Shown: one piece after another, positions 2,244 to 2,588 of the stretch
Layout of the letters: each line of letters begins with the position of its first letter
Numbering within the stretch: the stretch's first letter is position 1
Origin: a virus
Taxonomy: Duplodnaviria; Heunggongvirae; Uroviricota; Caudoviricetes
Length of the DNA stretch: 4,231 bases
Strand: one strand, 5' to 3'
IMG/VR virus record: IMGVR_UViG_2579778989_000007
Location: 1-4,231 of that record
The notes under the pieces: generated by a model
The model's input: only the letters and a program-made list of their open reading frames with translations
Told to the model about the DNA's origin: nothing
The model's database searches: none
Made by a program: the position numbers and the translations under genes

Positions 2244-2588
2244 TCAGGCCAGCGGTGGAGTCTTCAGAGAACCAGTAATTATTCCCGGTAGTTTTCCTCT
2301 GTAGGTTATCAACACATCCTGCGCCTCTAAAATTACGGGGCGCTTTTCCGGCAACGGACCATCCCCTTCACATAACCCGGCAGCAACATCCATGAAAAAC
2401 TGCTTCGCCTGCTTTTTCGCCTCAGCTTCGTAAAACTCCAGCGTGGCATCTTCAGTACGGTCAAGACTAATCGCCACATCTGGCAACAACAGTGACGGAT
2501 ACCCACCAATTTCCAGTGCCACAGTAACAGTAATCTTATTCGGGTAATTATTTATCCCTTTAACAACCAGTTCGTATTTTTTCTTCAT
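2244..2588 (-). CDS. ydfR: Uncharacterised protein embedded between holin and endolysin (114 aa); likely DUF1327/YdfR-like by synteny with the Qin prophage, function unknown
   Basis: ORF begins 4 bp after the holin stop, with GGGGAGAG Shine-Dalgarno overlapping the holin 3' end (translational coupling). Acidic, non-hydrophobic protein. The position between essQ-type holin and rrrQ-type lysozyme matches the Qin gene order as I remember it. The gene symbol is a synteny-based recollection, not verified by alignment. Confidence 0.65.
   Translation of the reverse strand: MKKKYELVVKGINNYPNKITVTVALEIGGYPSLLLPDVAISLDRTEDATLEFYEAEAKKQAKQFFMDVAAGLCEGDGPLPEKRPVILEAQDVLITYRGKLPGIITGSLKTPPLA

Follow-up and report, generated by a model that had tools for sequence, protein, structure and literature searches.

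A YdfR/DUF1327-family gene between the holin and endolysin genes of an Escherichia lambdoid lysis cassette is most likely an optional accessory late gene

The window, that is, the whole stretch of 4,231 nucleotides that was analysed, holds a phage lysis cassette whose lysis genes are all on the minus strand. Along late transcription, the order is the DUF826 gene, an S21-type holin gene, the YdfR gene, the endolysin gene, a hairpin, a small ORF, and Rz/Rz1. The features are given below by ascending coordinate.

85-270, plus strand: DUF3950 (YlcI/YnfO family) gene, between Rz and the terminase region
894-1361, minus strand: Rz spanin gene (PF03245, E 6e-48)
956-1141, minus strand: Rz1 gene, embedded in Rz (PF06085, E 1.7e-20)
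1363-1536, minus strand: small hydrophobic ORF, 57 aa from a GTG; phrog_6632 matches the last 45 aa
1537-1569, late strand: terminator-like hairpin of 14 pairs, followed by a T-rich tail
1660-2193, minus strand: lysozyme-family endolysin gene, 177 aa (PF00959, E 2.3e-23; phrog_7, endolysin)
2194-2243, minus strand: spacer of 50 nt between the YdfR stop and the endolysin ATG, with no Shine-Dalgarno sequence
2244-2588, minus strand: YdfR/DUF1327-family gene, ATG start, 114 codons and a TGA stop
2247-2258, minus strand: indel junction, codons 111-114 (CCA CCG CTG GCC), where longer alleles have about 460 nt extra
2253-2372, minus strand: linker and conserved C-segment, codons 73-112 (CEGDGPLPEKRPVILEAQDVLITYRGKLPGIITGSLKTPP), with hardly any variation in alignment A1
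2373-2588, minus strand: N-domain, codons 1-72, acidic beta-beta-beta-alpha, the sole part conserved family-wide
2589-2603, minus strand: coupling junction, with a Shine-Dalgarno sequence in the holin 3' end, the stop TAA, and a 4-nt spacer
2593-2808, minus strand: S21-type class II holin gene, 71 aa (PF04971, E 9e-33; phrog_9876 and phrog_20, holin)
2884-3080, minus strand: 3' two-thirds of the DUF826 gene, interrupted by an IS66-family element
3081-4231: IS66-family (ISCro1-like) element, inserted in the DUF826 gene

Over positions 1-3080, the window shares 99.9% identity with a prophage found in E. coli O104:H4 and its relatives, and in the O104:H4 prophage the matching region is flanked by a Q/tRNA/esterase block and by terminase genes. 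This identity ends at 3080, and the IS66-family element lies just upstream of the holin gene along late transcription; the transposase ORF of the element (3110-4159, minus strand) is N-terminally incomplete. In the source strain, the late promoter may thereby be cut off from the lysis cassette. The holin has starts at both Met1 and Met4. The endolysin N-terminus, read by eye, is hydrophobic and Gly/Ala-rich and resembles those of signal-anchor-release endolysins; by comparison with phage 21 R, the enzyme is presumably of this type. Between the endolysin and spanin genes, the strong hairpin at 1537-1569 lies within what is normally a single late transcript. The hydrophobic ORF at 1363-1536, whose stop lies 1 nt ahead of the Rz start, was present in only some related cassettes. 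Other related cassettes hold different inserts between endolysin and Rz, such as an antirepressor gene, and the R-Rz distance varied widely among related loci. The DUF3950 gene, which runs on the other strand from the late genes, is a further optional gene here.

The ORF at 2244-2588 was found to be a real gene, as the first-pass annotation, which had not stated its minus strand, had proposed. The protein matched Pfam DUF1327 (PF07041) over residues 1-112 with an E value of 2.4e-45 and 153.1 bits, where the gathering cut-off is 25 bits, and PHROG 406 (phrog_406) with an E value of 4e-64. It is also 100% identical to WP_000731267.1, a 'YdfR family protein' encoded by a CDS of E. coli O104:H4. 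The proposed assignment to the DUF1327/YdfR family, which is already known and annotated, was thereby substantiated. A chance ORF was ruled out by the DUF1327 score, the PHROG 406 match, and a dN/dS of approximately 0.2. None of the Pfam and PHROG matches of the protein falls in a lysis category. The PADLOC defence profiles gave no match at E values up to 0.1, and nothing was found with the protein in NCBIfam or among PDB sequences, nor with the window in Rfam.

The protein had also been described as acidic and soluble-looking. With 15 acidic and 14 basic residues, its pI is 5.46, and it is therefore only mildly acidic. The second part of the description stood, as no transmembrane-like stretch was found in the 114 residues, the top Kyte-Doolittle 19-residue window scoring 1.18. 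Moreover, a signal-like N-terminus, any other membrane or periplasmic feature, and holin-like sequence were absent from the protein. In base composition, the gene (GC 46.7%, GC3 47%) is AT-richer than both of its neighbours, namely, the holin gene (GC 54.6%, GC3 68%) and the lysozyme gene (GC 54.9%, GC3 61%). A consensus scan of 800-3100 found no sigma-70-like site on the strand of the gene, which is weak evidence. The gene appears to have neither a promoter nor a terminator of its own, and so it would not be an autonomous moron.

The junction with the holin gene agreed with what had been reported from the letters, a start 4 nt after the holin stop and a ribosome-binding site within the holin 3' end. 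The holin stop TAA occupies 2593-2595, the spacer AGCG 2589-2592, and the YdfR ATG 2588-2586, while GGGGAGAG lies at 2596-2603 within the last holin codons and places GGAG 9 nt upstream of the ATG. To 88 related loci that were fetched, the same comparison was applied, and 86 of them hold DNA upstream of the YdfR gene. In all 86, the ATG is 8 nt past the end of the holin coding sequence (the stop plus 4 nt), and this offset was kept even where the N-domain identity was only 47%. The spacer is 3-4 nt across the Escherichia lysis-cassette subfamily. The order holin, YdfR, lysozyme was likewise found in each of five loci sampled evenly down the E. coli ranking, and phages Evi and PhiR42_1 carry the gene directly between an S21-type holin gene and a lysozyme-family endolysin gene. 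The fixed position claimed for the gene was thus upheld within Escherichia/Shigella.

On the other side of the gene, the endolysin ATG follows the 50-nt spacer, which closes with the conserved motif ...GATAAAyCCTGATAAATATCC. In Stx2a_F723, a cassette without the YdfR gene, the endolysin ATG lies 4 nt past the holin stop behind the same GGGGAGAG. As the offset is the same, the YdfR gene therefore took over the coupled start of the endolysin. Most of the YdfR-containing loci compared have this spacer motif before the lysozyme ATG, and just its last part is left in three of them (L005, L006, and L009).

The AF2 model of the window protein shows an N-domain of three strands (5-14, 18-27, and 38-43) and one helix (50-73), with block-mean pLDDT values of 72-91, whereas residues 73-114 are unstructured with pLDDT below 50. 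The structure check proposed earlier yielded a beta-beta-beta-alpha fold, but no structural relative: Foldseek against the PDB and viral models gave no match below an E value of 0.01. A resemblance to the dsRBD was rejected because of low scores, a missing first helix, and the acidity of the domain. In alignment A2, which includes distant members, Y53-E54 is invariant and Y5 nearly so; an (F/Y)YE motif marks the start of the helix in DUF1327 N-domains, and the window domain has it. The N-domain is acidic across the family, with a pI of 4.5-5.3 in the natural short forms. Against deeply diverged alleles, its dN/dS was 0.17-0.23 at a saturated dS of 1.9-2.6, and the N-domain is under purifying selection.

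Behind the N-domain, the linker CEGDGPLPEKRP leads to the conserved segment at residues 83-112, which is missing from the K-12-type and the N-domain-only forms. Between the same alleles whose N-domain dS is 1.9-2.6, the dS of the C-segment was only 0.09-0.17. Its near-invariance is therefore the result of recent mosaic exchange rather than of exceptional constraint. The family as a whole is modular. An N-domain of approximately 72 residues is followed by the linker and the conserved segment, and in other alleles one or two helical extensions come next, together with a C-terminal domain of approximately 125 residues. Protein lengths of 72, 103, 104, 114, 116, 148, 176, 183, and 211 aa were found, and longer ones of 268, 287, 296, 305, 329, and 333 aa. 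From 72 to 333 aa, the N-domain is common to all alleles, and the remainder is freely variable. For the 329-aa long form, the AF2 model was too poor (mean pLDDT of 52) to serve as a search query, and the internal duplication suggested by its second beta-beta-beta-alpha element was rejected at an hhalign probability of 0.3%.

Relative to the longer alleles, the window allele is a minimal, solo form. The first 112 residues of the long YdfR proteins (176 to 333 aa; phrog_2091 and phrog_1085) are collinear with it at up to 99% DNA identity; unlike the window protein, they have one or two helical coiled-coil-like segments, and the longest add the C-terminal domain of about 125 aa. In the case of the 176-aa allele of locus L029, blastn showed nt 1-336 of the gene to be 99.4% identical, after which window nt 331-455 align with L029 nt 797-924, just upstream of the lysozyme gene. 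Encoded in the missing part of about 460 nt are a coiled-coil-like extension of the C-terminus and a small ORF on the opposite strand (phrog_18136). Flanking the junction at codons 111-112 are a CCACC microhomology and the repeat CTGAAGAC. The event may have been either a deletion in the window or an insertion in L029.

The same short form is found in well-known phages. Between S and R, H-19B has a 97.4% identical, unannotated 114-aa ORF, both junctions of which are those of the window; the 97.4%-identical gene is also present in many Stx1a- and Stx2c-converting phages, in some Stx2a-converting phages, and in BP-4795, and phage 86 has a 92.9%-identical copy of the protein. The K-12 Qin prophage protein YdfR (P76160, PF07041) belongs to the same family, and its gene occupies the same slot, between the S21-type holin gene essQ and the lysozyme gene rrrQ. 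In K-12-type YdfR, however, the C-terminus (residues 75-103) is unrelated to the window C-segment, and the 50-nt gap of the window is replaced by an overlap of the YdfR stop with the lysozyme ATG (CTATGA). The N-domains of the two are 47% identical over residues 1-74.

The YdfR family has few members and a narrow taxonomic range. With a word-indexed search, 274 clusters at 90% identity were obtained, and an exhaustive profile search of 1.84 billion representatives gave only 94 clusters at 50% identity. With one genome per species, 185,579 species held eight YdfR loci, all of them in Escherichia/Shigella except for two contigs. These two (L007 and L009) come from metagenome bins named Veillonella parvula and Bacillota bacterium. 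Both are E. coli-type lysis cassettes with a holin about 80% and a lysozyme 88% identical to those of the window, and their names are probably the result of mis-binning.

Within E. coli, the gene is common and optional. Of 5426 complete genomes, 3159 contained YdfR-like DNA, which occupied 6736 places in total and up to eight per genome, as compared with 13528 holin places. Among phage records, the holin was found in 434 and the YdfR gene in 101, approximately 23% of the holin records. Named Stx2a-converting phages account for 124 of these 434 holin records and for 2 of the 101 YdfR records, and the holins of several of them are 100% identical to that of the window. Co-occurrence with the cognate holin, as looked for in an antiholin-type gene, was not a property of the YdfR gene. 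It did show two marks of a moron, namely, presence or absence between otherwise collinear genomes and a base composition unlike that of the flanking genes.

Distant homologues that consist of the N-domain only were found in Yersinia, Morganella, and Superficieibacter prophages. Their genes sit between tail genes I/J or L/K, beside terminase genes, or between Q and the holin gene. The stand-alone DUF1327 proteins of 72-76 aa (from these three genera and phage Evi) share the beta-beta-beta-alpha domain and the YYE motif and lack the C-segment; they either score 34-35 bits against the Pfam cut-off of 25 or match the family profile. All of their genes lie outside the lysis cassette, except for that of Evi. 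A scan of viral contigs with P0174 alone found nothing.

Other optional genes offer a comparison. Stx2a_F723 has an antirepressor-like gene between R and Rz, an optional cassette insert like the YdfR gene. The lambda bor gene, after Rz, is an optional accessory gene that is dispensable for lysis. In contrast to the YdfR gene, which is on the late strand and borrows the ribosome-binding site of the holin gene, bor is on the opposite strand and has its own promoter.

The first-pass annotation gave the family no assigned function, which is correct, and a first biochemical lead to RNase E now exists. In a two-hybrid screen with RNase G as bait, residues 1-72 of K-12 YdfR were recovered, and this fragment gave stronger signals with RNase E constructs (PMC13232886, 2026). 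The full-length YdfR fusion gave a signal only with Rne(1-597), and FLAG-tagged Rne(1-598) eluted from lysates together with Strep-tagged YdfR (PMC13232886). DNase-resistant nucleic acid co-purified with YdfR, and few transcripts were changed on YdfR overproduction (PMC13232886). Because RNA co-purified and the YdfR experiment had no nuclease control (PMC13232886), the contact between YdfR and Rne may be RNA-bridged. The association with RNase E and RNA, demonstrated for K-12 YdfR alone (PMC13232886), is the sole experimental lead on the family and was reported for that allele in one paper.

The acidity of the N-domains (pI 4.5-5.3) fits protein binding better than nucleic-acid binding. This argues for a domain that would bind a protein, perhaps at the nucleic-acid-binding surface of that protein, rather than RNA directly. 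Several phage proteins bind or modify RNase E, namely, T4 Srd, T7 gp0.7, and phiKZ Dip. These phage proteins and the host proteins RapZ, RraA, and RraB may be analogous to YdfR in function only, as small proteins that associate with RNase E. Dip and gp0.7 act on the C-terminal scaffold of RNase E. YdfR, in contrast, was reported with the N-terminal half (PMC13232886).

Other published leads added little. Two signals for ydfR were judged too weak to use, namely, a streptomycin MIC that rose 3-fold when the gene was overexpressed and transcription with sigma-S in vitro. A 2014 envelope screen is cited for ydfR, but the gene goes unmentioned in the main text of that paper, and the deletion phenotype is suspected, purely as conjecture, to be a polar effect on the downstream lysozyme gene. 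A search of the literature for the names of the YdfR family and essQ found nothing relevant.

Considering these results, the preferred reading, with a probability of roughly 0.5, is that the intact and selected YdfR gene is an optional accessory late gene, or 'moron', and not a component of the holin-endolysin-spanin system, and that its N-domain binds a host factor. Most likely, the gene rides the late transcript of Escherichia lambdoid prophages. Its accessory character, as opposed to a part in lysis, is the firmer half of the reading and is considered probable. A hitch-hiking late moron was among the roles suggested at the outset, and the optional presence, the break in composition, and the contexts of the distant relatives favour it. 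The gene sits at the holin-coupled start and uses the ribosome-binding site inside the holin 3' end, so that late synthesis of its product in the cytoplasm is expected whenever holin translation takes place. The N-domain would be a protein-binding module aimed at a host factor, for which the catalytic N-terminal half of RNase E, as reported for the K-12 homologue, is the candidate with experimental support, and such binding would influence RNA decay in the late phase of lytic growth. RNase E as the specific mechanism is offered tentatively and is less likely than not, by analogy with an allele that is only 47% identical to the window N-domain and was studied in one paper. No structural relative that would support any mechanism was found. 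Moreover, the invariant position in Escherichia and the 4-nt junction would also be expected of a gene that needs holin-linked expression, which counts against the accessory reading, as does the apparent lack of a promoter or terminator belonging to the gene.

The reading matters because YdfR-like DNA is very common in E. coli and is also present in many Shiga-toxin phages. Should the RNase E lead extend to the phage alleles, host RNA decay would be modulated by a very common prophage gene during induction, the period in which Shiga toxin and the lysis genes are expressed. Furthermore, annotation pipelines and models of lysis cassettes should not count the YdfR gene as a lysis component. To the known picture of the family, two points are added here, namely, the published RNase E lead and the regular pairing with a convergent gene.

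In every distant context examined (L091-L096 and L102-L107), the DUF1327 gene was followed by a small convergent gene on the opposite strand. Such a partner was also found in four of the five sampled E. coli genomes and in phage Evi, and is absent behind the YdfR gene of the window. Across the related loci noted for it, the partner was near-universal (L003, L004, L029, L072, L074, L090-L096, L099-L113, and L115-L208). The partners belong to at least seven families (phrog_25324, 10490, 18136, 1853, 2572, 5483, and 18578), and homology among them was rejected, all hhalign probabilities being below 6%. In a reciprocal test with two partner families, an adjacent convergent DUF1327 gene was found in 14 of 14 and 78 of 79 loci (92 of 93 combined), and three of the loci had neither an S21 holin gene nor a lysozyme gene nearby. 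Evi has a phrog_25324 gene paired with DUF1327 in its holin-endolysin slot, and this family is also the partner of DUF1327 in tail clusters. This recurrent opposite-strand pairing is a testable handle on the function of YdfR.

Two readings fit the convergent pairing, namely, a mobile two-gene unit and a hotspot of recombination that has the DUF1327 gene as its anchor. One alternative explanation is that the DUF1327 protein either cooperates with or neutralises what the opposite-strand gene encodes, the window copy being an orphan that is kept either because it acts on partners from co-resident prophages or by inertia. The constancy of the pairing, its reciprocity, the use of phrog_25324 in both settings, and the many YdfR-like places that one E. 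coli genome can hold are all in its favour. However, the partner families are mutually dissimilar, and variable cargo at a recombination hotspot would fit the pattern equally; moreover, solo alleles are abundant, including those in genome records of phages such as H-19B and the Stx1a-converting phages. This alternative was rated unlikely, though ahead of the others. Its most far-reaching form, in which the DUF1327 N-domain gene and a converging variable gene make up an unrecognised mobile two-gene unit of temperate Enterobacterales phages, with the window copy as an orphan of the unit, was regarded as more speculative still. Such a unit would insert at the holin-endolysin junction, between tail genes, beside terminase genes, or after Q. 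In one conceivable scheme, its opposite-strand gene would be an exclusion or defence effector expressed in the lysogen, and the late-strand DUF1327 protein would switch this effector off during the phage's own lytic cycle. Alternatively, the antisense late transcript might be the off-switch, perhaps through RNase E.

A cytoplasmic regulator of lysis, which would tune pinholin triggering or restrain a signal-anchor-release endolysin and so set the lysis time, corresponds to the lysis-timing and endolysin-handling roles that had been suggested from the position of the gene. The holin-endolysin position and the 4-nt coupled junction, identical in every Escherichia/Shigella locus examined, are what such a regulator would lead one to expect, and the displacement of the endolysin to a start without a Shine-Dalgarno sequence could in itself alter the holin:endolysin ratio. 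However, in approximately three quarters of the phage records, holins that are identical or nearly so function alongside the same endolysin family with no YdfR present, and distant homologues lie outside lysis cassettes. Similarly, the lack of a transmembrane segment, signal, or holin-like sequence in the protein, as well as the free variation of everything but the N-domain, speaks against a regulator. Both roles are thus disfavoured, and a regulator of this kind is improbable as compared with the accessory late gene preferred here.

The least probable explanation, considered very unlikely, is that the 114-aa allele is a decaying remnant or spacer that has no protein function and acts in cis by uncoupling the endolysin from the holin, since its lack of the approximately 460 nt of longer forms, the many truncated, fused, or frameshifted variants of the family, and the 42 C-terminal residues that AF2 did not fold with confidence would suit it, but the N-domain is under purifying selection, the intact allele forms clusters of hundreds (P0004 with 759 and P0005 with 464 members) and occurs with 97% conservation in over 60 phage records, and even the 72-aa N-domain-only forms are maintained in other genera.

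The holin-endolysin slot also receives a related protein. In three loci (L099-L101, positions 3001-3642), a 213-aa protein starts 3 nt past the holin stop, and it consists of the helical and C-terminal parts of the long YdfR proteins without the DUF1327 domain.
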